A DNA stretch of 64,000 nucleotides from an uncultured Anaeromyxobacteraceae bacterium (GCA_964522105.1 CAZFVA010000001.1:80343-144342); one strand, 5' to 3'; numbered from the stretch's first letter, positions 11,606 to 58,668 are shown. Notes: generated by a model from the sequence alone, not told the origin. Program-made: numbers and translations.

Positions 11606-13288
11606 CTATCTCGTCAGCGACCGGTACCGGATGCGGTGGGGGGTGTCGGCTTCTTCGCCCATGCGTTCGCGGCGGTCTTTTTCGTAGTCCGAGTAGTTGC
11701 CCGGGTACCAGATGACGCTGCTGTCGCCTTCGAAGGCCAGGATGTGGGTCGCGATTCTGTCCAGGAACCAGCGGTCATGGCTGATGACCATCGCGCAACC
11801 GGCGAAGTTCAACAACGCGTCTTCAAGCGCACGCATCGTGTTGACGTCAAGGTCATTCGTCGGTTCATCCAGAAGCAGGACGTTAGCCTCGGTCTTCAGC
11901 ATCCAGGCCAGATGGACGCGGTTGCGCTCGCCGCCTGACAGTATCCCGACCTTCTTCTGCTGGTCCGGCCCGGTCAGGTTGAACCGCGCGACCCAGGCAC
12001 GCGAGTTCATTTCCACGCCGCCAATCAGAATCCTGTCCAGACCGCCGGTGATAACTTCCCAGGCCGTCTTTTCAGGGTCCAGAACGTCACGCATCTGGTC
12101 TGCACAGGAAACCTTGACGGTCGCGCCCAGAACAATTTCACCGGCGTCAGGCTTTTCCTGACCGGCAATCATCTTGAACAGCGTCGTCTTACCGGCACCG
12201 TTCGGGCCGACGATACCGACAATAGCACCAGGCGGCATCAGGAAATCCAACTTATCTATCAGAAGCCTGTCGTCGAATCCTTTGGACAGACCCTTTGCCT
12301 GGATAACGATGTCACCAAGCCGGGGACCCGGTGGAATATAGATTTCAAGGTCCCTGACCATCTTTTCAGGCTGTTTCGCCAGCAATTCTTCGTATGCCGT
12401 GACACGCGCCTTACCTTTGGCCTGACGACCACGCGGGGACATCTTGATCCATTCAAGTTCACGCGCAAGTGCCCGCTGGCGCTCACTTTCCGTCTTCGAT
12501 TCCTTGGCCAGGCGGTCCTGTTTCTGTTCCAGCCACGACGAATAGTTACCCTTCCACGGGATGCCTTCGCCACGGTCCAGTTCCAGAATCCAGCCGGCCA
12601 CGTTGTCCAGGAAGTAACGGTCATGGGTGACGGCGATTACTGTGCCACGGTAACGCTGCAGGTGCTGTTCAAGCCAGTGGACCGACTCGGCGTCCAGATG
12701 GTTCGTCGGTTCGTCCAGAAGCAGGATGTCGGGATTCTGCAGAAGCAGGCGGCACAGGGCAACGCGCCTGATTTCACCACCTGACAGAACCTTGATCGGC
12801 ATGTCCGGCGGCGGACAGCGCAGCGCTTCCATCGCCAGGTCGAGCTTGCTGTCCAGTTCCCATGCGCCCACGGCGTCCAGACGGTCCTGAACTTCGCCCT
12901 GCCGCTTCAGCAACTGGTCCATTTCTTCGTCGGACATCGGTTCGGCAAAACGCTCGTTGATAGCTTCATATTCTTCAATCAGCTTGACGATCGGGGCGGC
13001 ACCTTCGCGGACGATGTCAATTACGGTCTTATCCAGGTCGAGGTGAGGTTCCTGTTCAAGATAGCCGATCGTGAATCCCGGCGAACATGCCGTGTGGCCG
13101 ATGAATTCCGTGTCAACGCCGGCCATGATCTTCAGCAGCGTGGACTTACCGGAACCGTTGGCACCGATTACGCCAATCTTGGCCCCGTAAAAATACGAAA
13201 GGTACATGTCCTTCAGCACGGTTTTGGTCCCGTGAATCTTGCCGACACCTACCATTGAATAGATTACTTTCTGCGGATCGTCCGCCAT
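11606..13288 (-). CDS. ettA: Energy-dependent translational throttle protein EttA (ABC-F ATPase)
   Basis: 560 aa with two ABC cassettes. The N-terminus MADDPQKVIYSMVGVGKIHGTKTVLKDMYLSYFYGAKIGVIGANGSGKSTLL closely matches E. coli EttA (MAQFVYTMHRVGKVVPP..GAKIGVLGLNGAGKSTLL). Arm and linker lengths fit EttA. Confidence 0.9.
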   Translation of the reverse strand: MADDPQKVIYSMVGVGKIHGTKTVLKDMYLSYFYGAKIGVIGANGSGKSTLLKIMAGVDTEFIGHTACSPGFTIGYLEQEPHLDLDKTVIDIVREGAAPIVKLIEEYEAINERFAEPMSDEEMDQLLKRQGEVQDRLDAVGAWELDSKLDLAMEALRCPPPDMPIKVLSGGEIRRVALCRLLLQNPDILLLDEPTNHLDAESVHWLEQHLQRYRGTVIAVTHDRYFLDNVAGWILELDRGEGIPWKGNYSSWLEQKQDRLAKESKTESERQRALARELEWIKMSPRGRQAKGKARVTAYEELLAKQPEKMVRDLEIYIPPGPRLGDIVIQAKGLSKGFDDRLLIDKLDFLMPPGAIVGIVGPNGAGKTTLFKMIAGQEKPDAGEIVLGATVKVSCADQMRDVLDPEKTAWEVITGGLDRILIGGVEMNSRAWVARFNLTGPDQQKKVGILSGGERNRVHLAWMLKTEANVLLLDEPTNDLDVNTMRALEDALLNFAGCAMVISHDRWFLDRIATHILAFEGDSSVIWYPGNYSDYEKDRRERMGEEADTPHRIRYRSLTR

Positions 13289-13454
13289 ATCAGAACCTCG
13301 TTATAAAAGTGCGCAGATCCAAACGCGAAACCGCCAGATGTTAGGGCAAAAGGCAGTTCTAAACAAGGGACTTCTAACGGAAATAAGGCGTTATGAACGT
13401 TCACACCAAGACGTTTTTGTTAGATAGGGACATTCGGGGTAAAATGGGCGGGCA

Positions 13455-14111
13455 ATGCCGGGAGGTATCATGTTTTTTTCCAGCGTGAAACGTGCGCTTA
13501 TACTGGCGCCACATACTGACGACGGCGAATTCGGCTGCGGCGGGACAATTTCCAGGCTGTGCCGGTCAGGTGTCGAGGTCCATTACCTGGCATTTTCGGA
13601 CTGCCGCGACTCGCTGCCGGAAGGCTGGCCGCCTGATACGCTGTCCAACGAAGTGAAGGCCGCAACGCAGAACCTCGGGATCGCGCCGCAGAACCTGCAC
13701 ATATTCAGTTACAGGGTAAGGAACTTCACAGCCGACCGTCAGGCAATTCTGGAAGACCTGGTCAAATTCCAGCATGACTTGAACCCTGAACTGGTGCTGA
13801 TGCCGTCGCAGAACGACCTGCATCAGGACCACCAGACTGTCGCAAACGAAGGGCTGCGGGCGTTCAAGCAGACGACGATTTTAAGCTACGAAATCCCGTG
13901 GAATAACATAGAGTTCCGCAACCAGTTATTTGTGAAACTTGATGAAGAAGATGTGGTCGCGAAAGTGACCGCGCTTGGCAGATACAAGTCACAGGCCGAC
14001 CGTTACTACGCCAACGAAGAGAGCGTCCGGGCTCAGGCAAGGATGCGCGGCAACCAGATTGGCGCCAGATACGCCGAGGTCTTCGAGGTCGTCAGAGCCG
14101 TTGTAGGGTGA
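13455..14111 (+). CDS. PIG-L/LmbE-family N-acetylglucosaminyl deacetylase
   Basis: The N-terminal metal-binding motif ILAPHTDDGEFGCGGT is the PIG-L family signature (AHPDDE-like). Length is 218 aa and HQDH is found downstream. Confidence 0.75.
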   Translation: MPGGIMFFSSVKRALILAPHTDDGEFGCGGTISRLCRSGVEVHYLAFSDCRDSLPEGWPPDTLSNEVKAATQNLGIAPQNLHIFSYRVRNFTADRQAILEDLVKFQHDLNPELVLMPSQNDLHQDHQTVANEGLRAFKQTTILSYEIPWNNIEFRNQLFVKLDEEDVVAKVTALGRYKSQADRYYANEESVRAQARMRGNQIGARYAEVFEVVRAVVG

Positions 14112-14135
14112 AGTCGCCCCTGCCCGAGGTAGTTC

Positions 14136-15116
14136 ATGTCCACCAAATACACGTTTACACCCCTTGAAGCCGCGTCCTTCCTGGGACTTTCAGTTTCAGG
14201 ATGTCAGGACATTGCGGTCGACCGCGCTGAACAGACTTCAGCCGCCGGACCCGGTTGCGTAACGTGGTTCAAGACGTTTCAGTCAAAACACACCGGCGCA
14301 GTGATGGCCGTCAAAGGTGCCTTGATCGTCACCCCACTGCCGTCCTGCGTGGAAGAACACGCGCTGCTGAACCTGATCAGTGTCGGCAACGCCGTAATTT
14401 CAACCCCCGAACCGCGCCTTGCGTTTGCCCGACTGCTTGGCCACTTTTTCGGCCATCTTGAAGCCAGAATCCCGGCCGGAATTGACCCGCGTGCCTGCGT
14501 CGATCCGACCGCAGTCATTGGTGAAAATGTCACAATCGGGCCGTTCTGCTTTGTTGGCGAAGGCGCGTCAATCGGCGACAACACAATCATGCACCCGGGC
14601 GCGGTCGTCCATTCACGGTCGCTGGTCGGCCGCAACTGCATCCTGAATTCAAACTGCGTCATAGGCGGGCGCGGCTTCGGTTTCATCAAGCGCCACGACG
14701 GCGTGCTGGAACACTTCCCGCAAATTGGCATCGTAGTGCTTGAAGACGACGTGGAAGTCGGTGCCTGCACCGCGATTGACCGACCCGGGCTTGGTGAAAC
14801 AAGACTGAAGAAGGGAACAAAGGTGGACAATGTCGTCCACATAGCTCATAACGCCGTAATCGGGCCTGACGCGGCCATCATAGCCGGTGCCGAGGTCGGT
14901 GCATCTGTTATCATGGAACAGGGCTCGTGGCTTGGCCCGAACGCCTGCAGCATTGAAAACATCAGGATCGGCCGCAACGCCTTTGTCGGTATCGGCGCAA
15001 CTGTGCTGAAGGACGTTGCCGACGACCAGGTCGTCGCGGGCAACCCTGCCGAGCCGATTGAAGTGCTTAGAAGGAACAGAAAGGCCATCAAGAAGCTGGT
15101 TGAACAGGACAAGTGA
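14136..15116 (+). CDS. lpxD: LpxD-like UDP-3-O-acylglucosamine N-acyltransferase (left-handed beta-helix)
   Basis: Matches the LpxD N-terminal UDP-binding domain: ..PLEAASFLGLSVSG.., LAFARLLGHFF, GIDPRACVDPTAVIGENVTIG. Hexapeptide repeats follow, with TAIDRPGLGETRLKKGTKVDNVVHIAHNAVIG matching the LpxD core (IDRG..DT.IG.GTKIDN.V.IAHN..IG). Confidence 0.6.
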   Translation: MSTKYTFTPLEAASFLGLSVSGCQDIAVDRAEQTSAAGPGCVTWFKTFQSKHTGAVMAVKGALIVTPLPSCVEEHALLNLISVGNAVISTPEPRLAFARLLGHFFGHLEARIPAGIDPRACVDPTAVIGENVTIGPFCFVGEGASIGDNTIMHPGAVVHSRSLVGRNCILNSNCVIGGRGFGFIKRHDGVLEHFPQIGIVVLEDDVEVGACTAIDRPGLGETRLKKGTKVDNVVHIAHNAVIGPDAAIIAGAEVGASVIMEQGSWLGPNACSIENIRIGRNAFVGIGATVLKDVADDQVVAGNPAEPIEVLRRNRKAIKKLVEQDK

Positions 15117-15153
15117 TCTGACAGCCCGGGCTGGTTCGGAAGCAAGTATATTG

Positions 15154-16194
15154 ATGAATCAACATCCTGAAATCACAATCATTATCGCGGCCAGAAATGA
15201 AGAACGGCACATCGAAAAATGCCTTCTGTCGATCTACGACGCTGAACCGTTCGCCACCACATTTGAAATACTGGTTGTGGACGGGACCAGCACCGATGGC
15301 ACGAAGCAAATTGTCACGGCCTTCGCCGCCGCGCACCCTGAAGTCAGGCTGCTGGACAACCCGGACCGCATCGCCCCGAAGGCTTTCAACATCGGGGTGC
15401 GGGCTTCACGCGGCGACCTGATATTCATACTTGGCGCACATTCAAGTTACGACCGTTCCTACTTCCGACTGTGCGTTGAAACGGCGGCGCGTACCGGGGC
15501 CGCAAACGTCGGCGGGCGGCCTGTCTGGGGAACCGCAGGCGACCACTTCGAGGCCCGCATCTGCCGCGCACTCGGCCTGAGCCGATTCGCCATGGGCCAG
15601 TCGGACTACCGCCGCGAAGACGTCAAAGAAGGCCCCGCAACTACAGCCGTTTTCGGATGCTTCCCGCGCGAAACATTTGAAAAGTACGGTCTTTATGACG
15701 AGCGTCTTGTGCTGAATCAGGACTGGGAACTTAACCAGCGCATCATCCGTGGCGGCGGGACAATCTGGCTGAACCCGAATATTGTTGTGAACTACTTCGG
15801 TCGCGAAAAGATACGCGAAAACGTGTCACGGTCGCTTGATATCGGCAAGTGGAACGCCAGGATGTGGAAGATCGCGCCGTTCACGTTGACCCCGCGCCAC
15901 GCGATTCCTGCCGTTTTCGCAGCGGCCCTGATTGTTCCGGGCGTGAATCTGGCAGCGCTTGCTGCCCACCAGATTGTTGCGGCATACTTCGCCGCCGTCG
16001 AAGGGCTGCGCTTCAAAGACTTGAGGGTCGCCCTCGTGTTGCCGCCGGTCTTTCTGGCGGTCCACGCGGCGTACGGTTTTGGAACGCTGACCGGCCTGTG
16101 GGAAAACGCGACAGGATGCTGTCGGAACAAGTCCGATGCCGGCGAAGAAAACGACTATAAAATTGAGTACCTGGCCCCACGGACAAACACATGA
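15154..16194 (+). CDS. Family-2 glycosyltransferase with C-terminal membrane helices
   Basis: GT2 N-terminus MNQHPEITIIIAARNEERHIEKCLLSIYDA...ILVVDGTSTDGT. The DxD-containing core is followed by hydrophobic segments. The track ORF 15016 is trimmed to the ATG at 15154. Confidence 0.7.
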   Translation: MNQHPEITIIIAARNEERHIEKCLLSIYDAEPFATTFEILVVDGTSTDGTKQIVTAFAAAHPEVRLLDNPDRIAPKAFNIGVRASRGDLIFILGAHSSYDRSYFRLCVETAARTGAANVGGRPVWGTAGDHFEARICRALGLSRFAMGQSDYRREDVKEGPATTAVFGCFPRETFEKYGLYDERLVLNQDWELNQRIIRGGGTIWLNPNIVVNYFGREKIRENVSRSLDIGKWNARMWKIAPFTLTPRHAIPAVFAAALIVPGVNLAALAAHQIVAAYFAAVEGLRFKDLRVALVLPPVFLAVHAAYGFGTLTGLWENATGCCRNKSDAGEENDYKIEYLAPRTNT

Positions 16195-17474
16195 AAATAT
16201 CGCCCGCAGTTCCCAAATCCGAATTCAACCTTGAAGGCGTCAACTGGATGCTTCATTGCGCCGAGGGGCCGGTGCCAATCCGCGTGGCCGAAATGGCGCA
16301 CAGGCACATCGATGTTGAAACACACCCGTGGCACAAACATTTCCAGACGGAAGTGCTGGATGTCCTGACCGCCGCACGTTATCAGGCTGCTGTCGCGGTG
16401 GCCGATCCGAAAATCGCCAGCGCAACGAAGGGAAACGAAGAAGCTTCTGAAAACATTACGCTTTCACAAAGTACTTCATCGGGACTGACCGTTGTGGCGC
16501 GGGCATTCCCGTTCAAACCGGGCGACGAAGTGCTGGCGCCGCTTGGCGAATTTCCATCAAATATCTGGCCGTGGAAGGCGCTTGCCGACCGTGGTGTCAC
16601 CTTCCGCGAAGTGCCGCTGTGGCCGGGCCACAAATCGGGACGCGACGCCTTCCTGTCAACGCCGCCCCGCGCCGACTCCGCACCTGAACAGGCAATCGCC
16701 GCCGCCATCGGGCCACACACCAGAATAGTGACCGTAAGCTGGGTCAGATTTCAGGACGGCCTGAAGCTGGACCTGAATCTGCTTGGCCGCCTGTGCCGCG
16801 AACGCGACGTTGATCTGGTCGTAGACGGGATTCAGGGCGCTGGGACTCATGTGCCCGATCTTACTTACGTTTCCGCGTTTGCAACCGGCGGCCACAAAGG
16901 GCTGCTTGCCCTGCCCGGCCAGGGGTTTCTGTGGACATCGCCTGACTTCAGAAGACGGCTTTCACCGATCGGGTCGTGGCTTTCAGTTGAAAGCGGTGGC
17001 GACTTTTCGCGACCTGTCACCGACCTCAATCGTTCATGGCTTGATAACGGCCAGAGACTTGAACAGGGTGGCCCGAACGTGATTGGCTCGCTGGTGCTTG
17101 GCGAATCGCTGCGGGTCCTGAACACTGCGGGCATCGCCAATATAAGTGCGAACATCAAACTGCTTCAGTTGGCATTTCTGGATGCACTTGCAGCGCCGGG
17201 CCTGCGGAAACCGACCCAACCGGCTACAATCCTGCGCGAAGCCACAAGACTGGCAGACCTGGTCCGGGCCGACATGATCGGCCCGATTGTCAGCCTGCAC
17301 CATGACGGCAACGGTCCGGCATACCTTGACGAACTGGCCCTTATCGCGCGTGAACACAACACTTACGTTTCAACCAGGGAAGGCTATCTGCGGGTCGCGT
17401 TCCACTGCTGGCATGATGAAGACGATGCGAATCTGGCGGCCGACGTCATCGCGTCCGGGGGCCGCAACAATTGA
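16191..17474 (+). CDS. Class-V (fold-type I) PLP-dependent aminotransferase / cysteine-desulfurase-like enzyme
   Basis: The PLP-lysine context GGHKGLLALPGQGFLW resembles the SufS/NifS SGHK..GP.G.G.L motif. Size (427 aa) and overall pattern fit. Start overlaps the GT2 stop and the stop overlaps the next gene's TTG start (TTGA), suggesting one operon. Confidence 0.6.
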   Translation: MKISPAVPKSEFNLEGVNWMLHCAEGPVPIRVAEMAHRHIDVETHPWHKHFQTEVLDVLTAARYQAAVAVADPKIASATKGNEEASENITLSQSTSSGLTVVARAFPFKPGDEVLAPLGEFPSNIWPWKALADRGVTFREVPLWPGHKSGRDAFLSTPPRADSAPEQAIAAAIGPHTRIVTVSWVRFQDGLKLDLNLLGRLCRERDVDLVVDGIQGAGTHVPDLTYVSAFATGGHKGLLALPGQGFLWTSPDFRRRLSPIGSWLSVESGGDFSRPVTDLNRSWLDNGQRLEQGGPNVIGSLVLGESLRVLNTAGIANISANIKLLQLAFLDALAAPGLRKPTQPATILREATRLADLVRADMIGPIVSLHHDGNGPAYLDELALIAREHNTYVSTREGYLRVAFHCWHDEDDANLAADVIASGGRNN

Positions 17475-19297
17475 TTTCCAGAACCGGGATACCTCTTGCT
17501 GTCTGCAAAAGCCTGTGTAAGGCGTTTGGATCACAGGAACTGTTCGAAAACATTGACCTTACAATCTTTGAAGGCGACCGCCTGTGTATCATCGGGCCGA
17601 ACGGGTCCGGCAAGTCCACGCTGTTGAAGATGCTGATCGGCATTGAAAACATAGATGCCGGCACGATTTCCCTGAAAAAAGACGTACGAATCGGTTACGT
17701 CGAACAAAGCCACAAATTCGACCCTGAAAGCAGCGTCGAGCAGGTCGTACTTGATTCGCTTGGCGGCGTCATGCCGTGCGACGGCGAAAACTTCGGTGAA
17801 CGGGAAGCACTGGTCGCAGCAACGCTTGGCCGTGTTGGATTTACCGACCGCCTGCAGAAGGCCGGAACGCTGTCCGGCGGCTGGATGAAACGCCTTGCAA
17901 TTGCACGGGAAATCGTCCGAAATCCCGACCTGCTGCTGCTGGATGAACCGACGAACCACCTGGATATTGAAGGACTTATCTGGCTTGAAGACATGCTGAC
18001 ACGCGCGTCATTTTCTGTCGTCGCGGTCAGCCATGACAGACGCTTCCTTGATTCGTTTTCCAACAGAATTGTCGAGCTCAGCAGGCGTTACCCGGAAGGC
18101 AGCTTCCAGATAGACGGCAACTACTCGGACTTTCTGGATAAACAGGCCGAATTTTTTGAAAACGAAGCCAAAAGCAGGCTGTCCCTGGAAACAAGGGTCA
18201 AGCGCGAATCAGAGTGGCTGCGCCGAGGCCCGAAAGCCCGCGCAACCAAGGCACATTACCGTGTCGAAGAAGCCCACCGGCTGATAGCCGAACTGAACAC
18301 GGCGAAGTCGCGCGGACGCGTGGCTGAAACCGACTTCGAATTCAGTTCAACGGGCCGGAAAACTAAGCGCCTTCTGGTAATTCGCGGGCTGGAAAAATCG
18401 CTTGGTGGAAAGTTGCTGTTTTCCGGGCTGGATCTGGTGCTTTCGCCCGGTATGCGCATCGGGCTGGTCGGCCCCAATGGCAGCGGAAAGACAACATTCC
18501 TGCGCCTTCTGGCCGAAGACCTGCAACCTGACGATGGCGTGATACGCGCGGCCCCCGGCCTGAAGATCATCTACTTTGACCAGAAGCGCGAAAAGCTTGA
18601 CCCGGCAAAGACGTTGCGACGGACGCTGGCCCCCGATGGCGATTCCGTGTTTTACCGTGATGAACCTGTCCACATCCAGGCGTGGGCCGGCAAATTCAGG
18701 TTCAGACGTGACCAGCTTGATACACCGGTCGGGTCCCTGTCGGGCGGCGAACAGGCCCGCGTCGTAATCGCAGGTCTGATTGTCAGGCAGTGTGACGTTC
18801 TGCTGCTTGATGAACCTACAAATGACCTTGATATCCCGACGCTGGAAGTGCTTGAAGAGACTGTCGCGACGTTCCCGGGCGCGGTAATTCTGGTCACTCA
18901 CGACCGGTATATGCTGGACCGCGTGACGACCGTTACGCTTGGTCTTGACGGCAAAGGCGGCGTTTCCGCATTTGCTGATTTTGACCAGTGGCTGGCGGCG
19001 ATGAAGGAAGCGGCGCGGCCCATCCCCGAAGCGGCCGCCGCGAAAAAGGAACGCCCGAAGCAGAAGAAGAAACTGACGTACACCGAAGAAAAGGAACTGG
19101 CCACCATCGAGCAGCATATTCTGGAGGCCGAAACGAAGCTTGAAGCGGCTCAGACGCGCCTTGGCAGCCCTTTGATCGCGTCAAACCCGGCCGAGCTTCA
19201 GAAGGCATGCGACGCCGAAGCAAAGGCATCAAAGCGGGTCAGCGACCTTTATCACCGGTGGACTGAGCTGGAAGAAAAGCAGAATTCTGAAGAGTGA
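17471..19297 (+). CDS. ABC-F family ATPase (Uup-like, two ABC cassettes, no transmembrane domain)
   Basis: Two Walker A sites (GPNGSGKSTLL, GPNGSGKTTFL) and two signature motifs (LSGGWMKRL, LSGGEQARV). A C-terminal coiled-coil/basic extension is present. It appears to use a TTG start. Confidence 0.85.
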   Translation: MISRTGIPLAVCKSLCKAFGSQELFENIDLTIFEGDRLCIIGPNGSGKSTLLKMLIGIENIDAGTISLKKDVRIGYVEQSHKFDPESSVEQVVLDSLGGVMPCDGENFGEREALVAATLGRVGFTDRLQKAGTLSGGWMKRLAIAREIVRNPDLLLLDEPTNHLDIEGLIWLEDMLTRASFSVVAVSHDRRFLDSFSNRIVELSRRYPEGSFQIDGNYSDFLDKQAEFFENEAKSRLSLETRVKRESEWLRRGPKARATKAHYRVEEAHRLIAELNTAKSRGRVAETDFEFSSTGRKTKRLLVIRGLEKSLGGKLLFSGLDLVLSPGMRIGLVGPNGSGKTTFLRLLAEDLQPDDGVIRAAPGLKIIYFDQKREKLDPAKTLRRTLAPDGDSVFYRDEPVHIQAWAGKFRFRRDQLDTPVGSLSGGEQARVVIAGLIVRQCDVLLLDEPTNDLDIPTLEVLEETVATFPGAVILVTHDRYMLDRVTTVTLGLDGKGGVSAFADFDQWLAAMKEAARPIPEAAAAKKERPKQKKKLTYTEEKELATIEQHILEAETKLEAAQTRLGSPLIASNPAELQKACDAEAKASKRVSDLYHRWTELEEKQNSEE

Positions 19298-25474: not shown

Positions 25475-26923
25475 ATGAAAGACATGAAGAACCTGCGATT
25501 TGCGATGTTACCGGCAGTCCTTATGGCCTTAAGTTTCGGCACAGGCTGCAGTTCATCGAATGTACCTGCTGATACGACTGTCCATCAGGATATTGTGGCT
25601 GACACAGGGACAGATACCGTTGCCGATGCGACCGACACAAATGTCCCGGACACAACTGACACAGCTTCGCCGGATGTTGTCACACCTGATGACAGCACCA
25701 TTGCTGATGATACCGAACCGGGCGATACCGCGGTTGACGCTTCCGACACCACGGACACAACACCTGAATTTGTCTGGGCTTCCGGCTGCGAAGGCAGCGG
25801 CACCGGCGCAGCGTGGACAATGATCGAAGACCATACTTTCCTGCGCGGCCCGCTGATTCAGATGTCCGACAGAAACACTGTCACCGTCGTGTGGCGCACC
25901 GCAGTCCGAAGTGACAACGAAGGCTGCGTTGACTACGAAGTCGACAGCGAAACGCTGACGGCATGTGGCATGGCCGACAAAAACGGCCAGTATGAAATCA
26001 CGCTGAATGACCTGCCGGTGGAAACTGAAATCACATACTCGGCGCGGGTTGGCGACGTGAAAACCGGTGATCTGACGTTCAGGACAATGCCGAACACCCC
26101 GAAGCCTATGAAATTTGCTGTATTTGCCGACGCCCACAACAACTTCGAAAACCTGCAGAAGATGACGGCCGTCGCGCTTGCCGAAGGCGTTGACTTCGCG
26201 TTCGGCGTCGGCGATTTCGTTCATCAGGCTGAAACCATTCAATATGACGAGTTATTTCAGGGATTCCAGGATCTTGGAAGCCGCGTAAACATCTGGAGCG
26301 TCATCGGCAATCATGACTCGGGCAGCGAAGAATACTTCGGTTCCTTCGTCGTCCCGGCAGGCAGCCAGGACCCGTATGACATCGAGCACGGATACGCGGA
26401 AGGCTGGTGGGATCGGCGCATCGGAAACGTCTGGCTTGGCGGCGGCTGGGTCCGCGACTTTTACATCTCGGGTCCCGATTCGGACTTCGGCGAAGTCGGC
26501 TGGTTCAGGCAGCAGTTCCAGAAAAACCATTTCAAGACGGCTCAGTGGAAGCTGTTCTTCATCCATGAACCGCCGTACTGCCAGGGCTGGGGCGGATGCA
26601 ATTATGACGGCGAATCGTGCCTGCGCCCGTCGCTGGTTCCGATGGCGGCACAGAACGGCATTCAGGCCACCTTCCACGGTCACATGCACGGTTATGAATA
26701 TGGCGAATCGGAAGGCGTCAAAATATTCATACCGGGCGGTCTGGGCGGCGAACTGGACTACTTCTGCGAAAACAGCACGCCCCCGCAGCCATGGGCATAC
26801 AATTACGTCCATAACTTCGCCATCGTAGAGACGAATTGCGACAAGATGATCGTCCGCTTCATGGGCCTTGACGGTGTTGAACTTGACCGCGTTGAAGTAC
26901 CGTATGTCGCCCCGACCGAATAG
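25475..26923 (+). CDS. Secreted metallophosphoesterase (calcineurin-like) lipoprotein, paralog 1
   Basis: Lipoprotein signal ..LSFGTGC and a D/T-rich tether. The metallophosphoesterase motifs appear in order: FAVFADAHNN (DxH), GVGDFVHQ (GDxx), VIGNHDSG (GNHD/E), FHGHMHGYEYG (GHxH). Confidence 0.8.
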   Translation: MKDMKNLRFAMLPAVLMALSFGTGCSSSNVPADTTVHQDIVADTGTDTVADATDTNVPDTTDTASPDVVTPDDSTIADDTEPGDTAVDASDTTDTTPEFVWASGCEGSGTGAAWTMIEDHTFLRGPLIQMSDRNTVTVVWRTAVRSDNEGCVDYEVDSETLTACGMADKNGQYEITLNDLPVETEITYSARVGDVKTGDLTFRTMPNTPKPMKFAVFADAHNNFENLQKMTAVALAEGVDFAFGVGDFVHQAETIQYDELFQGFQDLGSRVNIWSVIGNHDSGSEEYFGSFVVPAGSQDPYDIEHGYAEGWWDRRIGNVWLGGGWVRDFYISGPDSDFGEVGWFRQQFQKNHFKTAQWKLFFIHEPPYCQGWGGCNYDGESCLRPSLVPMAAQNGIQATFHGHMHGYEYGESEGVKIFIPGGLGGELDYFCENSTPPQPWAYNYVHNFAIVETNCDKMIVRFMGLDGVELDRVEVPYVAPTE

Positions 26924-26942
26924 CCCGCTTAGAGGTAACACA

Positions 26943-28322
26943 ATGAAAGACCTGCTGAATTTGCGACCGGTCGTGTTGATGGTGTTATTGGTATCAGTTT
27001 CCATGGTTTCAGGCTGTGCTTCGTCAGTGACTCCGACAGACACAGGCCGGGATATCATTGCCGACACTGCCGTTGCCGACACTGCCGTTGCAGATACCGC
27101 CGTTGCCGACACTGCCGTTGCAGATACTGCCATTGCCGATACTGCCATTACCGATACAACCCATGAATTTCAATGGGCTTCCGGCTGTGAAGGAACCGGC
27201 ACCGGCGCGACGTGGACATTAATCGAAGACCACACGTTCCTGCGCGGCCCCATGATACAGATGTCTGACTGGAACACGGCTACCATCCTGTGGCGAACCG
27301 CCGTCAAGTCCGACGAAGAAGGCTGCGTGGATTACGAAGTCGGCGCAGAAACCTTTACGAAGTGCGGGACTTCAGACAAACGTGGTCAGTATGAAATAAC
27401 GCTGGATGACCTGCCGGCCGCGACGGAAATCACCTATTCGGCCAGAGTTGGCGACATCAAGACGACCGATCTGACCTTTCGGACAATGCCTGACCGCCCG
27501 GCCCCGATGAAATTCGCTGTGTTTGCGGATGCGCACTGCAACATTGAAAATCTGAAGAAAATGACCGCGGTGGCACTGGCCGAAGGAGTCGATTTTGCGT
27601 TCGGCATTGGCGATTTCATCAATACCCCGGAAGACGTCCAGTTCGACCAGGTGTTTGAAGGACTCCAGGACCTTGGAAGCCGCGTAAATATCTGGGCCGT
27701 GCTTGGTAATCATGACACCGGCGGCATGTATTTCTACAACGCTTTTGCACTGCCGAAGGGCAACACGATCGAACCCGACTACAGCAATGGCTATGGCGAG
27801 GCCTGGTGGGACAAGCGGATCGGCAACGTCTGGCTTGGCGGCGGGTGGGTCATTCCATTCCTTTTCGGGGAGCCTGAAGGGGTTGAAAGCGAACAGAGCT
27901 GGTTCAGGCAACGCTTCCAGGAAGATCACTTCAAAACGGCTCAGTGGAAACTGTTTTTCATACACGAACCGCCTTACTGTCAGGGCTGGGGCGGATGCAA
28001 CTATGACGGCGAAGAGTGCCTGCGCGAATCCCTGATGCCGATGGCAGCCGAAAACGGTATCCAGGCCACCTTCCACGGGCACATGCACGGCATAGAGTAC
28101 GGCGAAACGAACGGCGTCAAGGTGTTCATCCCGGGTGGAGTCGGCGGAGATCTGGACTACTTCTGCGAAAACAGCTCACCACCGCAGCCATGGGCATACA
28201 ACTACGTCCACAACGTCGCAATCGTCGAAACGAACTGCGACAAGATGGTCGTCCGCTTTCTGGGCCTCGATGGCGTTGAACTTGACCGCGTCGAAGTCCC
28301 ATGGGTCGAACCGACGCAATAA
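26943..28322 (+). CDS. Secreted metallophosphoesterase (calcineurin-like) lipoprotein, paralog 2 with tandem-repeat tether
   Basis: It has the same motif set as paralog 1: FAVFADAHCN, GIGDFINT, VLGNHDTG, FHGHMHGIEYG. After the tether the two proteins are largely collinear and appear roughly two-thirds identical by eye. The signal is MKDLLNLRPVVLMVLLVSVSMVSGC. The tether is a perfect (ADTAV)n repeat. The track ORF starts at 26868 and the likelier start is the ATG at 26943. Confidence 0.8.
   Translation: MKDLLNLRPVVLMVLLVSVSMVSGCASSVTPTDTGRDIIADTAVADTAVADTAVADTAVADTAIADTAITDTTHEFQWASGCEGTGTGATWTLIEDHTFLRGPMIQMSDWNTATILWRTAVKSDEEGCVDYEVGAETFTKCGTSDKRGQYEITLDDLPAATEITYSARVGDIKTTDLTFRTMPDRPAPMKFAVFADAHCNIENLKKMTAVALAEGVDFAFGIGDFINTPEDVQFDQVFEGLQDLGSRVNIWAVLGNHDTGGMYFYNAFALPKGNTIEPDYSNGYGEAWWDKRIGNVWLGGGWVIPFLFGEPEGVESEQSWFRQRFQEDHFKTAQWKLFFIHEPPYCQGWGGCNYDGEECLRESLMPMAAENGIQATFHGHMHGIEYGETNGVKVFIPGGVGGDLDYFCENSSPPQPWAYNYVHNVAIVETNCDKMVVRFLGLDGVELDRVEVPWVEPTQ
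27058..27156 (+). repeat. In-frame tandem repeat, 15-bp unit (gccgacactgccgtt and variants), about 6.5 copies, encoding (ADTAV/ADTAI)n
   Basis: Seen directly in the sequence: ccgacactgccgttg x2, cagataccgccgttg, ccgacactgccgttg, cagatactgccattg, ccgatactgccatta. It sits in the lipoprotein tether of paralog 2. The opposite strand yields the artefactual ORF MAVSATAVSAT.... Confidence 0.9.
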
Positions 28323-30196: not shown

Positions 30197-30356
30197 CAAT
30201 ATCAAGGGCACGCCCCGGGGCGCTGGAACAATCACATCGCTTCCCACAAACACAAAACCGCCATAAACACATCTACCCGATACGCAAATGCAGTGTTATC
30301 ATTTCGAAGTTCTTCCGTGTCGCCCCCAGCACCCTGACAGAATCCCGGAGGCTACG

Positions 30357-32705
30357 ATGCGTTCATCATTGCGAACTCTGTCGGTCTGTAAAGTAATTAT
30401 TCTGGCAGTAACTGCCGGTTTCGCCATCGGCGGCTGCAGTAACTGGCAGCAGGCCGAAGATACCGGATTCGACGCTGAAGATTCCGCTGACACAATGAAT
30501 GAACTGGTAATTCCTTCGGATGATGGCCGCGATTCTACCGGCGAAGAAATCGATTCGACTGACCTGTTTGACGACACCATACAATTGGACACCGATGACA
30601 GCGCGGACGCCGACGACGATGTTGAAGCACGCGACACGTTGGACACCACCAGCAATCCTGACATTCCAGATACTTACGACACTGCCGACGTCGATTCCGA
30701 CCACGGTCTTCCTGACTGTCCGGGCGCCCCGGGCTGCGAGTGCACCACCGGGGATGACTGTGAAAATGGCCTGTGCGTGCCGACAAACGACAAATCATTC
30801 TGCGGTCAATTGTGCTGGCTCGATTCAGGGTGTCCCGAGGGCTGGATCTGCGAAGAGATCAACCTCGGCGACAAGACGCTGCGGGCCTGTATCTACAAGT
30901 TCCCGACGCTTTGCCAGCCGTGCCGTGAGGATTCGGAATGCCTGCCGCAATATGGGGCCAGGGACCGCCGTTTTGTCTGCGTCGATACAGGCGCAAACGG
31001 CAAATTCTGCGGGACGGGATGCGCTGCGGAACCGGATTGCCCCGAAGGATACAAGTGCGCGGATGCCCCGACGAACGCCGGCCATTTTCTGCAATGCCAG
31101 CCCGATAACGGCGAATGTGCATGTACTGAAAAATTCATCGAAGGCGGTTACGAAACAGACTGCTTCCGCACAAACGACATCGGGACATGCCCCGGAACCA
31201 GAACGTGCGACATGGAATGCTCGGCAAAATCTGCCGAAGCCGAGATATGCAACCTGCAGGACGACGACTGCGACGGCGCGACCGATGGCGAGAACACTTC
31301 AGATTGCCAGACATTCTTCTATGATTTTGACAACGACGAATACGGAACCGACGACTCGAAGTGCCTGTGCGAAACGACGGGCGAATATCGGGCAACTGTT
31401 GAAGGCGACTGCAATGACAACGACCCGGAAGTGAAGCCGGGAAACTTTGAAATCTGCAACGACGGCAAAGACGACAACTGCGACGGACTGACTGACGTGG
31501 AAAACTCGCAGGAATGTAAGAATTATTTCCTGGACGTTGACGGCGACGGATACGGCCTTTCGGAATACAAGTGCCTTTGCGCTGCATCAGGAAACTACAG
31601 AGCCACCCGCGCTTGTTTCGACAGTGGCTCGTGTGACTGCCTGGATACCGACCTGGAAGTTAACCCCGGACGCATTGAAATCTGTAACAGCGGCAAAGAC
31701 GACAACTGCGATGCTCTGGCAGACGGTGAAAACTCACAAGGTTGCACAAAGTTCTACCGCGACGCAGATAACGACGGATATGGGACCGGCGAGTACAAGT
31801 GTCTGTGCGCGGCAGTCGGCCAGTACAAGATTACGTCTGCCTGCGTCGTTGGCGTCTCGTGCGACTGCAACGACTTCGACCCCGACATGAACCCGGGATT
31901 GCAGGAAGTCTGTGGCAACGGCAAGGACGACAACTGTGACGGGTCCCAGGACACCGAAAACGCGACTTACTGCATCGACTATTTCCTGGATGCTGACGAC
32001 GACGGATTCGGCGTAACAGGAATGAAAAGATGCCTGTGCTACGAGGAAGGATTGTATCGAGTCCTGGGCGGAGGCGACTGCAACGATAACAACGCGGCCA
32101 TGAATCCCAATAACCCTGAAATCTGCAACAATTCTATCGATGACGATTGCGACGGGTATGCCGACAACACGTCGGGACAACCGAACCAGAAGTGCAACGT
32201 GTGCGGCGACGGCCTGATAGACAACGGGGAGGTCTGCGACCACGGAAACTCGAATCCCGGACTGGCGTGCGCTTCTGACTGCAAATCTATCCCGTGCTCC
32301 AACGAAGCTGATGCGTCCATAACTCAGATAAACGGCAGGAACTGCTACTGGCGATCGACGTTGGTCGTGGGGCGATCGGATGCAGCCTCAAGATGCGAAT
32401 CCCGACTTGGATACCTTGTCCGAATGGAAACATCAAACGAGCGGGACTGGGTCTTTGGAAACATGATCTTTCCACCGGGAAGCGGAAGCAAAGTGTGGGT
32501 CGGCGCTCAGAAGTGCGGCGGCAACTGGTGCTGGGATAACGGCCAGATCGTTGGTTCTGAATGGGATTGGAGCCCCGGAGAGCCCAGCGGAAACGGGGAC
32601 TGCGCACAATCATCTGGCAACGGCGCACGCTACGACGACGTCGGCTGCAACAGCGCCAACCGCGACTACGTGTGCGAAAGACCGACCGTCGGAACCTCGC
32701 GCTGA
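30357..32705 (+). CDS. Giant Cys-rich secreted lipoprotein with ~5 MopE-like putative metal-binding repeats and a C-terminal C-type-lectin-like domain
   Basis: Lipoprotein signal MRSSLRTLSVCKVIILAVTAGFAIGGC, then an acidic D/T/S tether. About five ~65-aa repeats follow, of the form C(N/D)D(N/F)DP..PG..E(I/V)CN(D/S)GKDDNCDG..D.EN...C..Y(F/Y).D.D(G/N)DGYG....KCLC. This matches the CNGxDDDCDG 'putative metal-binding motif' abundant in Myxococcota. The C-terminus has ..CYWRSTLVVGRSDAASRCESRLGYLVRMETSNERDWV..W.. ARYDDVGCNSANRDYVCE, the pattern of a C-type lectin fold. Confidence 0.8.
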   Translation: MRSSLRTLSVCKVIILAVTAGFAIGGCSNWQQAEDTGFDAEDSADTMNELVIPSDDGRDSTGEEIDSTDLFDDTIQLDTDDSADADDDVEARDTLDTTSNPDIPDTYDTADVDSDHGLPDCPGAPGCECTTGDDCENGLCVPTNDKSFCGQLCWLDSGCPEGWICEEINLGDKTLRACIYKFPTLCQPCREDSECLPQYGARDRRFVCVDTGANGKFCGTGCAAEPDCPEGYKCADAPTNAGHFLQCQPDNGECACTEKFIEGGYETDCFRTNDIGTCPGTRTCDMECSAKSAEAEICNLQDDDCDGATDGENTSDCQTFFYDFDNDEYGTDDSKCLCETTGEYRATVEGDCNDNDPEVKPGNFEICNDGKDDNCDGLTDVENSQECKNYFLDVDGDGYGLSEYKCLCAASGNYRATRACFDSGSCDCLDTDLEVNPGRIEICNSGKDDNCDALADGENSQGCTKFYRDADNDGYGTGEYKCLCAAVGQYKITSACVVGVSCDCNDFDPDMNPGLQEVCGNGKDDNCDGSQDTENATYCIDYFLDADDDGFGVTGMKRCLCYEEGLYRVLGGGDCNDNNAAMNPNNPEICNNSIDDDCDGYADNTSGQPNQKCNVCGDGLIDNGEVCDHGNSNPGLACASDCKSIPCSNEADASITQINGRNCYWRSTLVVGRSDAASRCESRLGYLVRMETSNERDWVFGNMIFPPGSGSKVWVGAQKCGGNWCWDNGQIVGSEWDWSPGEPSGNGDCAQSSGNGARYDDVGCNSANRDYVCERPTVGTSR

Positions 32706-34560: not shown

Positions 34561-34635
34561 GTCAAAATCCTTTTTCAGAGTGCCCTGGCAAAGGACAATC
34601 ATCTGGTAGTGTAAGTGCCGGTAACCTGGCACCAA

Positions 34636-53020: not shown

Positions 53021-53086
53021 CTCGTACCCCCTGTTGATGCCGGTAACACATTTCAAAAGTCCCCGAAGGGACTGCCCATAACGTAA

Positions 53087-54337: not shown

Positions 54338-54360
54338 ATCGGCCTCCCGAAAAGTGCCTG

Positions 54361-55314
54361 TTAAAACGAATCCATGCGGGTAAGTGGCCGCATCTCTTCG
54401 TCATTTTCACTACCTTTATGACACCGCAACGTAACTGAACCGGGACTGGACTCGTTATCCAGAAACATTTCCTCGATCTCAAGACCACGATCGGCAGCTA
54501 TCTCGACTGCTTTGGCCATGCGACTGACTTTGTCCTCGAAGGGGGCAAAACCGAACACGACCGTCGGTCTGGCCGGCATCTTCAGCGCAAATCCCATGGC
54601 CGGCTGCCACGACACTGTCACGCCGCCTGCAACCCATTCAGGCTGCGAAGCTTCCATTGATGCAACCAGCCTGATGGCGCTTAAAACCACGCCTTCGACA
54701 GATTCAATTCTCTGTGAATTCAGAAGCTTTTCGTGTTCAATCCTTGCCTTCACCTGCCACACGGTTTCTTCTGCGGCGACCGGTACAACGATCGGTTCCA
54801 GCTTTTCTTCCAGGCCCTCAAGCAGAGGCAGTCCGGCCGCCCAGTCAGGCTCGACGCCGGGAATCTGACGGCCCTGCGCGTTGAACGATGTAAGACCCTT
54901 GCGATCAGATACCAGGATTACAGGACGCGCTTCGCGGACCCTGATTGTGAGCGTGTCCGGCAGAACCTTTTCCACGGCGACCCATTCGATCCGCGCATCC
55001 TCTAAACATGTTCTTTCAACACTGCCGGTAAGCAGTGAAAATATCTCGGTTTTTCCGGGCTGAAGGCCGCATGCACTTTCAATCTCGGAAGGATCAAGTC
55101 TGTCAGTTCCACACACTTCAACCGTCTTAAGGACAAAATGATCTGTTGAGCCGAGCACATTAACAGCCTCAAAAATCCCGTATCCGACGACACCGATGGC
55201 GGAACATATCAGGATGGCGGGGCCGGTCTTTTTCAGACCTTTAAGGACGGAAGAACACACACCCCTGCATCTCTGGGAAAAGGTGAGAATTCTGCGATTT
55301 CCTGCCATCGTCAT
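54361..55314 (-). CDS. ftsQ: Cell division protein FtsQ/DivIB (POTRA domain)
   Basis: Single N-terminal TM (PAILICSAIGVVGYGIF), followed by a POTRA-like block HFVLKTVEVCGTDRLDPSEIE. Its position between murB and ftsA is diagnostic of the dcw cluster. Confidence 0.65.
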   Translation of the reverse strand: MTMAGNRRILTFSQRCRGVCSSVLKGLKKTGPAILICSAIGVVGYGIFEAVNVLGSTDHFVLKTVEVCGTDRLDPSEIESACGLQPGKTEIFSLLTGSVERTCLEDARIEWVAVEKVLPDTLTIRVREARPVILVSDRKGLTSFNAQGRQIPGVEPDWAAGLPLLEGLEEKLEPIVVPVAAEETVWQVKARIEHEKLLNSQRIESVEGVVLSAIRLVASMEASQPEWVAGGVTVSWQPAMGFALKMPARPTVVFGFAPFEDKVSRMAKAVEIAADRGLEIEEMFLDNESSPGSVTLRCHKGSENDEEMRPLTRMDSF

Positions 55315-55322
55315 ACCCCTGT

Positions 55323-58623: not shown

Positions 58624-58668
58624 CCGACCCGGGGTCGGACGTTCTTGCGCAAAGCGCGGTGACCCTGT

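Follow-up and report, generated by a model that had tools for sequence, protein, structure and literature searches.

The replacement of an acetyl group on an aminosugar by another acyl group has been described in several systems. In rhizobial nodulation factor synthesis, NodC, NodB and NodA constitute a GT2-family glycosyltransferase, a de-N-acetylase and an N-acyltransferase that exchange acetyl for fatty acyl on a glucosamine residue; NodB belongs to family CE4, and NodA has a fold of its own. A GlcNAc deacetylase and a fatty N-acyltransferase are likewise paired in the teicoplanin/A40926 systems. In the Raetz pathway, a GlcNAc derivative is de-N-acetylated by LpxC, and the amine is then acylated by the trimeric left-handed beta-helix enzyme LpxD. 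Within Escherichia coli LpxD, N44, Y47 and H276 contact the UDP-pyrophosphate, D232 and Q236 bind the acyl beta-hydroxyl, and R314 binds the phosphopantetheine phosphate (PMC6286764). Tunicamycin synthesis involves the glycosyltransferase TunD, the LmbE/PIG-L-family deacetylase TunE that frees a HexNAc amine, and the N-acyltransferase TunC that adds a fatty acyl group carried by the ACP TunK (PMC7143919). For surface polysaccharides, the glucosyltransferase ExoA of Sinorhizobium meliloti builds the succinoglycan repeat unit by adding glucose to lipid-carrier-linked galactose (PMC1403797).

The stretch of 64,000 nucleotides analyzed here, referred to as the window, contains three consecutive genes that together follow the enzyme logic of the Nod trio (Table 1). 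We propose, at a probability of roughly 0.6, that this accessory cassette re-tailors an N-acetylhexosamine for a surface glycan, whereby the acetyl group would be removed, a different acyl group attached, and the sugar transferred into the glycan; the substrate assignments of all three enzymes are predicted from homology and context. By analogy, the cassette can be regarded as a variant of the reacylation logic already known from LpxC/LpxD, NodB/NodA and TunE/TunC, but its components differ from those of each described system. The PIG-L-family deacetylase is unrelated to LpxC, and none of the three proteins is more than distantly related to its Nod counterpart: the NodC model matches the cassette GT2 at only 17.9 bits (E 0.0012), and NodC is a processive chitin-oligomer synthase, whereas the cassette GT2 is ExoA-like. 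TunC and the teicoplanin acyltransferase do not have the LpxD fold, the glycosyltransferases of these systems are GT1 or GT4 rather than GT2, and their genes lie in actinomycete secondary-metabolite clusters, in contrast to the surface-polysaccharide clusters of diderm bacteria in which the cassette module is found.

Table 1. Positions of the cassette and of adjoining features in the window.
Feature	Position	Strand	Characteristics
Promoter-like site TTGTTA, 17 nt, TAAAAT	13417..13445	+	consensus scan; upstream of cassette
Accessory cassette PIG-L + LpxD-like + GT2	13470-16194	+	three genes
PIG-L/LmbE-family zinc de-N-acetylase	13470..14111	+	213 aa; PF02585; predicted HexNAc de-N-acetylation
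LpxD-fold N-acyltransferase	14136..15116	+	326 aa; predicted N-acylation of freed sugar amine
ExoA-like inverting GT2	15154..16194	+	346 aa; PF00535, PF13641; two C-terminal hydrophobic helices
Class-V-fold PLP enzyme	16191..17474	+	427 aa; PF00266; backbone gene outside cassette
ABC-F (Uup-like) ATPase	17471..19297	+	backbone partner of the PLP gene, outside cassette

A preliminary description of the window had named four reading frames—PIG-L, LpxD-like, GT2 and a PLP enzyme—and these are real and carry the assigned domains, as evidenced by profile matches to PF02585, TIGR01853, PF00535 and PF00266. The longest PIG-L frame (13455-14111) begins at an alternative upstream ATG at 13455, and the true start is probably the ATG at 13470, which is preceded by a GGGAGG ribosome-binding site and agrees with the JGI gene calls. 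PF02585 is matched at 66 bits (cut-off 28), the metal/catalytic motifs HTDD and HQDH do not vary among seven orthologues, and no hydrophobic segment is predicted in the protein. Its best NCBIfam matches, BshB1 (59 bits, cut-off 182) and BshB2 (36 bits, cut-off 195), both remain below the cut-off.

The second protein is a true structural homologue of LpxD with intact catalytic His and Asp, and it has the three-domain architecture of an N-terminal alpha/beta domain, a left-handed beta-helix and a short basic C-terminal helix. The complete LpxD N-domain and beta-helix were thus correctly recognized at the outset, despite the fact that the Pfam model of the N-domain (PF04613) was not detected in the protein: TIGR01853 positions 4-321 align with residues 14-324, hhalign relates the N-domain of the family to that of canonical LpxD (probability 98.6 %, E 7e-16), and when the AlphaFold2 model (pLDDT 96.5) was compared with the PDB by Foldseek, the top 25 matches were all full-length LpxD structures (340-348 columns) with query-normalized TM-scores of 0.65-0.81, mostly 0.73-0.81. 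The catalytic residues H238, D231 and N239 are retained, D231 and H235 correspond to E. coli D232 and Q236, and conservation extends to R312, the equivalent of E. coli R314, and to the basic helix 308-325. The nearest non-canonical relatives are short LpxD-like proteins (~295-305 aa, e.g. P0119; about 33-42 % identity), for which our literature search found no characterization. They fall on the cassette family's side of the split from canonical LpxD and share with it W in place of F41 and H in place of Q236, but they lack the C-terminal helix, keep an NP.K-like N-domain motif and, at the one locus examined (P0119), have no PIG-L partner. The P0119 gene lies in a Wzx/EpsG capsule-type cluster directly behind genes for a thiolase and a 3-hydroxyacyl-CoA dehydrogenase, neighbours that would supply 3-hydroxybutyryl-CoA and imply a CoA-borne 3-hydroxybutyryl donor; by analogy, this speaks for the re-acylation proposed for the cassette.

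The LpxD-like family of the cassette is small and rare, with about 22 proteins among 5.8 billion clusters. A PIG-L gene directly upstream of the LpxD-like gene, as had been pointed out for the window, recurs at loci L006, L008/9, L010, L013 and L032, the two genes being separated by 2 nt or overlapping by 4 bp; at these loci the identity of the upstream PIG-L is 63-66 % (L006, L008/9, L013) or 49-50 % (L010, L032). Besides the window, the pair is thus present in at least five independent contexts, whose genomes have 67-73 % GC versus about 55 % in the window, and the adjacency is not due to chance. As the gene pair and its translational coupling are conserved across unrelated genomes, a functional coupling of the two proteins is supported, and together with the true LpxD homology this favours an N-acylated aminosugar glycoconjugate distinct from lipid A, which the preliminary description had mentioned in parentheses. 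At three of these loci (L008/9, L010, L032), a GT2 orthologue follows directly downstream. At L031 a divergent PIG-L gene lies directly downstream of the LpxD-like gene, at L007 another one is found about 5 kb away, and four family members (L005, L011, L012, L029) have none; furthermore, a 59 %-identical GT2 occurs elsewhere with neither PIG-L nor LpxD-like gene, and the triad genes are therefore modular and not obligately linked. Every readable family locus outside the window lineage is a polysaccharide cluster, a count from which the short contigs L030 and L032 and the unannotated L031 were left out. These clusters include genes for Wzy_C, Wzx, Bac_transf or WecA-type initiating transferases, DegT aminotransferases, GT4s, a UDP-sugar dehydrogenase, an AsnB-like amidotransferase and sulfotransferases, with Wzy/Wzx at several loci.

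The GT2 fits this setting. Its longest frame begins with TTG at 15016, the ATG at 15154 being the likely start, PF00535 is matched at 75 bits, and hydrophobic segments span residues 249-277 and 292-310. Judged by its sequence, the enzyme would move a sugar to, or build an acceptor on, a membrane-bound, lipid-carrier-linked glycan. Its relatives carry the name succinoglycan protein ExoA, and it is similar to ExoA in size, but it is only about 30-40 % identical to the ExoA-like proteins retrieved, and its subfamily has the motif I-L-G-A-H where the wider group has R-L-D-A-H; as the Asp of the DxH motif is thereby lost, the donor chemistry is uncertain. The Foldseek neighbours of its AlphaFold2 model (pLDDT 94.4) are the glycan- or polymer-modifying GT2s WrtF, PcManGT, RmlT, TarS and TarP.

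Our model, in which the sequence of reactions, the nature of the sugar, the acyl donor with its chain length and the end product are inferred, would place every step on the cytoplasmic side of the membrane. PIG-L would first strip the N-acetyl group from a HexNAc, either as a UDP-sugar or on a lipid-linked glycan. The LpxD-like trimer would then use His238/Asp231 to load a different acyl group onto the freed amine, most likely an (R)-3-hydroxyacyl group on a phosphopantetheine carrier such as ACP, and the GT2 would finally install the acylated sugar on an undecaprenyl-pyrophosphate-linked oligosaccharide or supply the HexNAc acceptor there. To our knowledge, the PIG-L substrates known so far are GlcNAc glycosides and not UDP-GlcNAc, and as the N-domain of the LpxD-like protein has lost the pyrophosphate contacts, neither order of steps is secure. 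Neither Wzx nor Wzy nor an initiating transferase is encoded in the annotated parts of the window (about 8-37 kb, 38-41 kb and 52-64 kb), so that the modified glycan, if real, must be encoded elsewhere.

This isolated position would also suit an unlikely alternative in which the product is a stand-alone N-acyl-aminosugar glycolipid, independent of lipid A and of Wzy-type polysaccharide: the GT2 would attach HexNAc to a lipid of the membrane, and after its deacetylation by PIG-L, a long 3-hydroxy fatty acid carried by ACP would be added by the LpxD-like enzyme. The predicted membrane anchorage of the GT2 agrees with such a route, tunicamycin synthesis follows a similar logic (PMC7143919), and the basic C-terminal helix with R312 fits an ACP-borne, possibly long, acyl donor, the helix being absent from the CoA-associated short group. 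However, the length of the acyl chain is an assumption of this reading, the family outside the window lineage is found in polysaccharide clusters, and the GT2 is ExoA-like with structural neighbours that act on glycans or polymers.

The Arn, Lgm and Flm/NaxD systems combine a GT2 that has C-terminal transmembrane helices with a sugar deacetylase of the YdjC or ArnD type. The cassette resembles them in having such a GT2 beside a deacetylase, and all three of its proteins are predicted to be cytoplasmic or to face the inner leaflet, which would permit an ArnC/LgmA/FlmF2-type route: undecaprenyl-phosphate-HexNAc would be made by the GT2, deacetylated (as by LgmC or NaxD), N-acylated, flipped, and passed on to lipid A or a different acceptor in the periplasm. 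We consider this improbable, as no ArnC-type model is among the 18 NCBIfam families matched, no polyprenyl-phosphate glycosyltransferase, GtrB, DPMS and ArnC included, is among the top 50 Foldseek matches of the GT2, no ArnT/GT-C transferase or flippase adjoins any triad, and the deacetylase is of the PIG-L type.

It had further been proposed that PIG-L replaces or supplements LpxC, with the LpxD-like enzyme acylating UDP-3-O-acyl-GlcN in a non-canonical lipid A route. The full LpxD architecture with its catalytic residues, the preserved Asp and Arg for binding of the acyl beta-hydroxyl and phosphopantetheine, and a score of 272 bits with the LpxD-named subfamily model NF002060 (cut-off 207) would be in line with this, but as the capsule-cluster protein P0119 passes NF002060 as well, that match does not discriminate. 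With the equivalog model TIGR01853, the protein reaches 190.8 bits, below the cut-off of 242.5 and far from the 350-358 bits of canonical LpxDs. The family forms a monophyletic group in 100/100 bootstraps, with canonical LpxD as a clade apart in 98/100, and in this comparison with true LpxD, which had been suggested as a check, the protein essentially groups with non-lipid-A acyltransferases. The E. coli positions N44, K46, Y47 and H276 are not conserved, although the UDP-pyrophosphate ligands N44, Y47 and H276 occur in 23-26 of 26 canonical sequences; furthermore, the oxyanion Gly257 is an Ala and the C-terminal helix is shorter. Canonical loci (L015, L017-L020) have an lpxD-fabZ-lpxA setting, whereas the LpxD-like gene has neither fabZ nor lpxA as neighbour and its relatives are located in polysaccharide clusters, some of which are of the Wzy/Wzx/Bac_transf type. 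Syntenic sister genomes lack the cassette altogether, which one would not expect if it carried out an essential step of lipid A synthesis. On all these grounds, we regard this route as very unlikely.

Equally hard to sustain is the membership of the class-V PLP enzyme in a four-gene pathway, in which it would supply or modify the acyl or amino substituent, such as one derived from cysteine or another amino acid as in mycothiol- or bacillithiol-like compounds, since the supporting points (the GT2 stop overlapping the PLP start, and BshB1/BshB2 as best, albeit sub-threshold, PIG-L matches) are outweighed by the retention of the PLP/ABC-F pair in L026 and L027, where the triad is missing, the absence of the PLP family from all other LpxD-like family loci, and its frequency in Holophagae in unrelated contexts. 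Overlapping stop and start codons had been described throughout, but they are confined to GT2/PLP (ATGA) and PLP/ABC-F (TTGA), with gaps of 24 nt between PIG-L and the LpxD-like gene and 37 nt between the latter and GT2; as the overlap runs on into a translation factor, it is here no sign of a shared pathway. The PLP enzyme (PF00266, 83 bits) scores far below every cysteine desulfurase cut-off, and its family is widespread in Myxococcota and Holophagae. The two Myxococcota relatives L026 and L027 have at least eight syntenic genes in common with the window and the order EttA / PLP / ABC-F / DAHP synthase without PIG-L, LpxD-like gene and GT2, their PLP orthologues (59-63 % identical) lying between the EttA-divergent promoter and the ABC-F gene. 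The PLP enzyme therefore belongs to the host backbone, and in the model of a re-tailored surface glycan it and ABC-F are probably passengers that are functionally unrelated to the triad. The cassette may have been inserted in the window lineage or lost in the two relatives; its GC and GC3 resemble the host, and no flanking repeats were found. The triad lies downstream of the probable ancestral promoter of the PLP gene and ahead of its start codon, and is thus probably transcribed with the PLP/ABC-F operon. In a short intergenic alignment with both relatives, GGGTAAAATGGGCGGGCAATG-CCGGGAGG pairs with GGGTTACAATCCGGCGCGAAGCGCCCCGGGG, which is suggestive of the promoter-like site before PIG-L being the counterpart of the PLP promoter region in the cassette-less relatives.

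The locus consists of five genes that run in one direction and encode a PIG-L deacetylase, an LpxD-like hexapeptide protein, a GT2 glycosyltransferase, a class-V PLP enzyme and an ABC-F ATPase, and the domains first assigned to the flagged four, that is, all but the ABC-F ATPase, were borne out by Pfam and NCBIfam. Translation of the PIG-L gene probably starts at position 13470, because this start comes with a GGGAGG ribosome-binding site and a 213 aa product that matches independent gene calls. The preliminary description had overlapping stop and start codons running through to the ABC-F gene, which holds for the GT2/PLP and PLP/ABC-F junctions (4 bp each) but not for the first two, where gaps of 24 nt (PIG-L to LpxD-like) and 37 nt (LpxD-like to GT2) were found.

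Positions of the features in the window that are discussed in the text
Feature	Position	Strand	Basis
ettA	11606-13288	-	
Stretch conserved upstream of ettA	13325-13367	-	
PIG-L	13455/13470-14111	+	Pfam + NCBIfam
LpxD-like hexapeptide protein	14136-15116	+	Pfam + NCBIfam
GT2	longest ORF from 15016, likely ATG 15154, end 16194	+	Pfam + NCBIfam
Class-V PLP enzyme	16191-17474	+	Pfam + NCBIfam
ABC-F ATPase	17471-19297	+	Pfam + NCBIfam
Tandem phosphoesterase genes and ABC-2 pair	25475-28322		
MopE-type repeat protein	30288-32705		
Protease/Disintegrin-domain protein	32770-34635	-	
dcw cluster	51740-63864	-	

The Pfam model of the LpxD N-terminal domain gave no match on the LpxD-like protein; with hhalign, the N-domain of its family, a rare LpxD-like clade, matched the N-domains of canonical LpxD, the lipid A enzyme, with a probability of 98.6 %. 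The AlphaFold (AF2) model has a pLDDT of 96.5, and its best 25 PDB neighbours in Foldseek are all LpxD structures, aligned end-to-end over 340-348 columns with TMq values of 0.65-0.81. The LpxD N-domain and beta-helix attributed to this protein early on are thus confirmed by all three analyses, and the three-domain LpxD architecture is present, with an N-terminal uridine-binding-type alpha/beta domain, a left-handed beta-helix and a C-terminal helix. This helix, with about 18 residues, is shorter than that of LpxD; in the family it is short and strongly basic, and it is absent altogether from a CoA-associated group of short LpxD-like proteins. In LpxD, His239 is the catalytic base, Asp232 binds the acyl beta-hydroxyl and Arg314 the phosphopantetheine phosphate, while UDP is recognized by F41/Y47, which stack on the uracil, and by N44, Y47 and H276, which engage the pyrophosphate (PMC6286764). 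H238, D231 and N239 of the window protein, the equivalents of E. coli His239, Asp232 and Asn240, are invariant or nearly so across the family, and according to the residue mapping Arg314 of E. coli LpxD is also kept. Phe41 is conservatively changed to an invariant Trp, whereas the pyrophosphate/uracil ligands Asn44, Tyr47 and His276 are lost in the family: the N44, K46 and Y47 positions are variable and H276 is replaced by G or N, as opposed to 26 canonical LpxDs that have N44 in 24, K46 in 23, Y47 in 23 and H276 in 26 cases. In the LpxD-like protein of the window, the oxyanion Gly257 is changed to Ala and Gln236 to His. Because of this mapping of kept and lost residues, the acceptor site looks remodelled, with the catalytic and acyl-carrier side looking LpxD-like.

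TIGR01853, the lipid A equivalog model, scores the window protein at 190.8 bits, below its cut-off of 242.5, and separates family members (150-200) from canonical LpxDs (350-358). Both the window protein (272 versus a cut-off of 207) and P0119, a short LpxD-like protein from a capsule cluster, pass NF002060, a looser subfamily model. In a distance-based NJ tree of the 117 best homologues, the canonical LpxDs, including E. coli LpxD, form one clade of 326-372 aa proteins with PF04613 matches, and the window family lies on the opposite side of the tree together with numerous shorter LpxD-like proteins. Of 100 bootstraps run on 64 sequences, all (100/100) recovered the family as monophyletic, and 98/100 separated the canonical clade; the E. 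coli LpxD reference sequence agrees with the 3eh0 PDB alignment. At the canonical lpxD loci L015 and L017-L020, a second LpxA-like hexapeptide gene follows about 0.4-1.8 kb downstream. The association with fabZ, lpxA and lpxB that is typical of lpxD, if not universal, was not found at the window locus, where the neighbours are PIG-L and GT2 genes. The label 'UDP-3-O-acylglucosamine N-acyltransferase' that the window gene and its relatives carry is probably wrong. The described LpxD paralogues, Francisella LpxD1/2 and those of Leptospira, are lipid A enzymes.

The family comprises about 22 clusters at ≥43 % identity, after which the scores drop from 286 to 194 bits. An exhaustive search of 1.84 billion representatives gave only ~3-5 clusters (50 % identity) at family-level scores; below these, LpxD-like proteins of ~300-330 aa form a continuum. 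When genome contigs were scanned with the family alignment, only two close relatives were obtained, one in a Binatia MAG and one in a high-GC MAG labelled Rickettsiales, and a metagenome scan added only four more family loci. The conserved unit is PIG-L plus LpxD-like, often with GT2. A PIG-L gene lies immediately upstream of the LpxD-like gene in the family loci L006, L008/9, L010, L013 and L032, and its product is 63-66 % (L006, L008, L013) or 49-50 % (L010, L032) identical to that of the window; in L008/9 and L010, the loci with gene calls, the junction is a 2-nt gap or a 4-bp overlap. A divergent PIG-L gene is found directly downstream in L031 and another ~5 kb off in L007, and a GT2 orthologue directly follows the LpxD-like gene in L008/9, L010 and L032. 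The genomes of the linked loci have a GC content of 67-73 %, compared with about 55 % in the window. Since a 59 %-identical GT2 is encoded in a Wzy/DegT cluster without the PIG-L and LpxD-like genes, the parts of this triad are modular.

Outside the window lineage, all family loci with readable flanks are polysaccharide biosynthesis clusters; L030 and L032, which are short contigs, and L031, which has no annotation, are uninformative here. The gene set of L005, L007, L008/9, L010, L011 and L029 includes Wzy_C, a Wzx-type flippase and Bac_transf or WecA-type initiating transferases, further DegT aminotransferases, GT4s and a UDP-sugar dehydrogenase, and also AsnB-like amidotransferases and sulfo- and methyltransferases; L012, which comes from a Binatia MAG, encodes Bac_transf and Wzy_C together with a sulfotransferase. 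L006 and L013 combine the PIG-L and LpxD-like genes with two GT4s, two YdjC genes (sugar deacetylase-like) and a CapK-like gene (adenylate-forming enzyme), and these regions (L006:113-7362, L013:9300-16558) represent a variant of the module, from genomes with a very high GC content; the label 'uncultured Rickettsiales' of L013 is doubtful because of its GC content of 73 %. In L005, L029 and L011, which have no PIG-L gene, an epimerase/dehydratase and a DegT aminotransferase adjoin or lie near the LpxD-like gene, and their presence where PIG-L is missing suggests that the amine for acylation can come from transamination as an alternative to deacetylation. We found no description of PIG-L with an LpxD-fold acyltransferase in polysaccharide clusters in the searchable literature, nor did searches on LpxD-like or paralogue proteins, 3-hydroxybutanoyl N-acyltransferases, or LmbE in O-antigen clusters turn up the module.

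The PIG-L protein matches PF02585 with 66 bits (gathering cut-off 28.2) over profile positions 1-128 of 129. The metal/catalytic motifs of PIG-L/LmbE zinc de-N-acetylases, known from MshB and BshB, are (A/P)H(P/T)DD and HxDH, and the PHTDDGE (HTDD) and HQDH motifs of the window protein are invariant in 7 orthologues. Among solved structures, it is closest to TT1542, diacetylchitobiose deacetylases and BshB-type enzymes; its scores on the models of the bacillithiol deacetylases BshB1 and BshB2, 59.2 and 36.5, are far below the cut-offs of 182.5 and 195.25, respectively. The GT2 protein has a GT-A domain (PF00535/PF13641) and a C-terminal membrane anchor, and its AF2 model (pLDDT 94.4) contains long C-terminal helices at 220-320. 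Two C-terminal hydrophobic segments are present in the GT2 and none in the PIG-L, LpxD-like and PLP proteins, which places the chemistry in the cytoplasm. Relatives of the GT2 carry the name ExoA in their source records, and ExoA is a glucosyltransferase that acts on the lipid-carrier-linked succinoglycan repeat unit (PMC1403797). According to Foldseek, the GT2 model resembles WrtF, PcManGT, RmlT, TarS and TarP, and no polyprenyl-phosphate GT is among the best 50 matches. A NodC-like processive synthase was dismissed, as the NodC model gives 17.9 bits and the relatives are ExoA-like, and an ArnC-like polyprenyl-phosphate GT found no NCBIfam or Foldseek support. In GT2 enzymes, D-x-H is a nucleotide/metal motif; the subfamily of the window protein and its relatives P0251-P0258 has I-L-G-A-H in place of the R-L-D-A-H of the wider ExoA-like family. 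The His is invariant, and Asp is changed to Gly and Arg to Ile in 9/9 close relatives, as against more distant ExoA-like proteins with D in 41/43 and R in 40/43. One of the close relatives, P0255, shares this Asp/Arg loss, and its gene is not linked to a PIG-L or LpxD-like gene.

The class-V PLP enzyme had been proposed as the fourth member of an aminosugar-lipid pathway, and this part of the proposal had to be abandoned, since two syntenic contigs, L026 and L027 (the L027 protein is labelled Myxococcota by NCBI), keep the PLP and ABC-F genes and lack the PIG-L, LpxD-like and GT2 genes. Their PLP orthologues are 59-63 % identical to that of the window, and the shared gene order comprises a PilZ-domain Ser/Thr kinase, an OmpA-like protein and EttA (opposite strand), followed by PLP, ABC-F, a DAHP synthase/chorismate mutase (opposite strand), an AAT-family protein and GH106; the ABC-F gene that follows PLP in the window and the two Myxococcota relatives is Uup-like. 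Members of the PLP family occur widely among Myxococcota and Holophagae, where their gene contexts are unrelated, and no further locus with a gene of the LpxD-like family contains one. PLP orthologues labelled Myxococcota also suggest the taxonomic placement of the window. The PLP enzyme passes PF00266, has an invariant GGHK lysine motif and is marked by very distinctive invariant motifs (HCAEGP, GEFPSNxWPW, SWVRFQDGL, VVDGIQxAGT, GGHKGLL); a cysteine desulfurase of the SufS/CsdA/IscS type was rejected, the best match being TIGR01979 at 52.5 against a cut-off of 475.

In L027, the divergent intergenic region leads straight into the PLP gene, and in L026, the slot between EttA and PLP is filled by an unrelated DUF1016/YhcG (PDDEXK nuclease-like) gene (L026:6694-7845), which is why this slot seems to have gained genes repeatedly. 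As the promoter-like stretch just 5' of PLP in both contigs aligns to the stretch just 5' of the window PIG-L gene, the triad is situated between the ancestral promoter and the PLP start codon; a sigma-70-like site is predicted just upstream of PIG-L. The triad may have been gained in the window lineage or lost in the relatives. A mobile element was rejected as unsupported, because the triad is not flanked by notable repeats, either direct or inverted, and its GC and GC3 are like those of host genes. The intergenic region upstream of the triad has no Rfam match. The stretch upstream of ettA that is conserved with L026 and L027 reads AAACCGCCAGATGTTAGG...AACAAGG on the plus strand, and TTGTTT, 17 nt, TAACAT on the ettA strand; also without an Rfam match, it is most simply explained as a conserved ettA promoter.

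The remaining three proteins suggest a scheme in which PIG-L would free the amine of a HexNAc, the LpxD-like trimer would attach a new acyl group to it, most probably a 3-hydroxyacyl group delivered by a phosphopantetheine carrier, and the ExoA-like GT2 would put the sugar into, or supply the HexNAc on, a lipid-carrier-linked glycan. We infer the order of the steps, and likewise which sugar is used, how long the acyl chain is and which glycan results. The deacetylate-then-acylate logic is shared with LpxC/LpxD, with NodB/NodA (acting with NodC), and with TunE/TunC (with TunD; PMC7143919). The annotated parts of the window contain no polysaccharide cluster near the triad, and what is found there is the dcw cluster and assorted housekeeping and secreted proteins; the genes for the target glycan lie elsewhere, unless the product of the triad is a stand-alone N-acyl-aminosugar glycolipid. 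The more specific reading that the LpxD-fold enzyme, PIG-L and the membrane GT2 make an N-fatty-acylated hexosamine with a long (R)-3-hydroxyacyl group from ACP, for a lipid-A-independent aminosugar glycolipid or a lipidated surface polysaccharide, appears unlikely to us, with a chance of roughly one in five. Acyltransferases with the LpxD fold are regarded as lipid A enzymes and receive this annotation automatically, and here a distinct, uncharacterised branch has probably been recruited to surface-glycan tailoring, with a PIG-L deacetylase taking the place of LpxC as its partner. If the proposed chemistry is true, it would constitute a route for bringing non-acetyl N-acyl groups onto residues of the GlcN or GalN type, in which acetylation of the amine precedes formation of the nucleotide sugar, and a portable three-gene 'acyl-swap' module for glyco-engineering; should PIG-L act on a UDP-sugar, this would be a new substrate class for its family. 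An 'LpxD' annotation of such genes in MAGs should not be taken as a sign that lipid A is made.

LpxD-like proteins of ~298 aa that lack the C-terminal helix form a large group, which is likewise automatically annotated as LpxD. Its member P0119 is encoded in a capsule-type cluster with Wzx, EpsG and a pyruvyl-transferase (L061:4427-7897, and L062), directly downstream of genes for a 3-hydroxyacyl-CoA dehydrogenase and a thiolase, and this locus looks like a self-contained 3-hydroxybutyryl-CoA supply for aminosugar N-acylation. Elsewhere in the window, an ABC-2 permease/ATPase pair comes after a tandem of two paralogous genes for calcineurin-like phosphoesterases of 482 and 484 aa. A trypsin-like protease domain occurs in a predicted secreted protein together with two matches to the Disintegrin domain, familiar chiefly from the ADAMs of animals and from snake venoms, and the adjoining gene encodes a protein with MopE-type Cu-binding repeats. 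The classical dcw cell-division/peptidoglycan cluster comprises a PBP transpeptidase gene, murE, murF, mraY, ftsW, murG, murB, ftsQ, ftsA and ftsZ, and neither murD nor murC was seen among the window ORFs scanned; because of this cluster, the window can be assigned to the core chromosome of a peptidoglycan-bearing bacterium.
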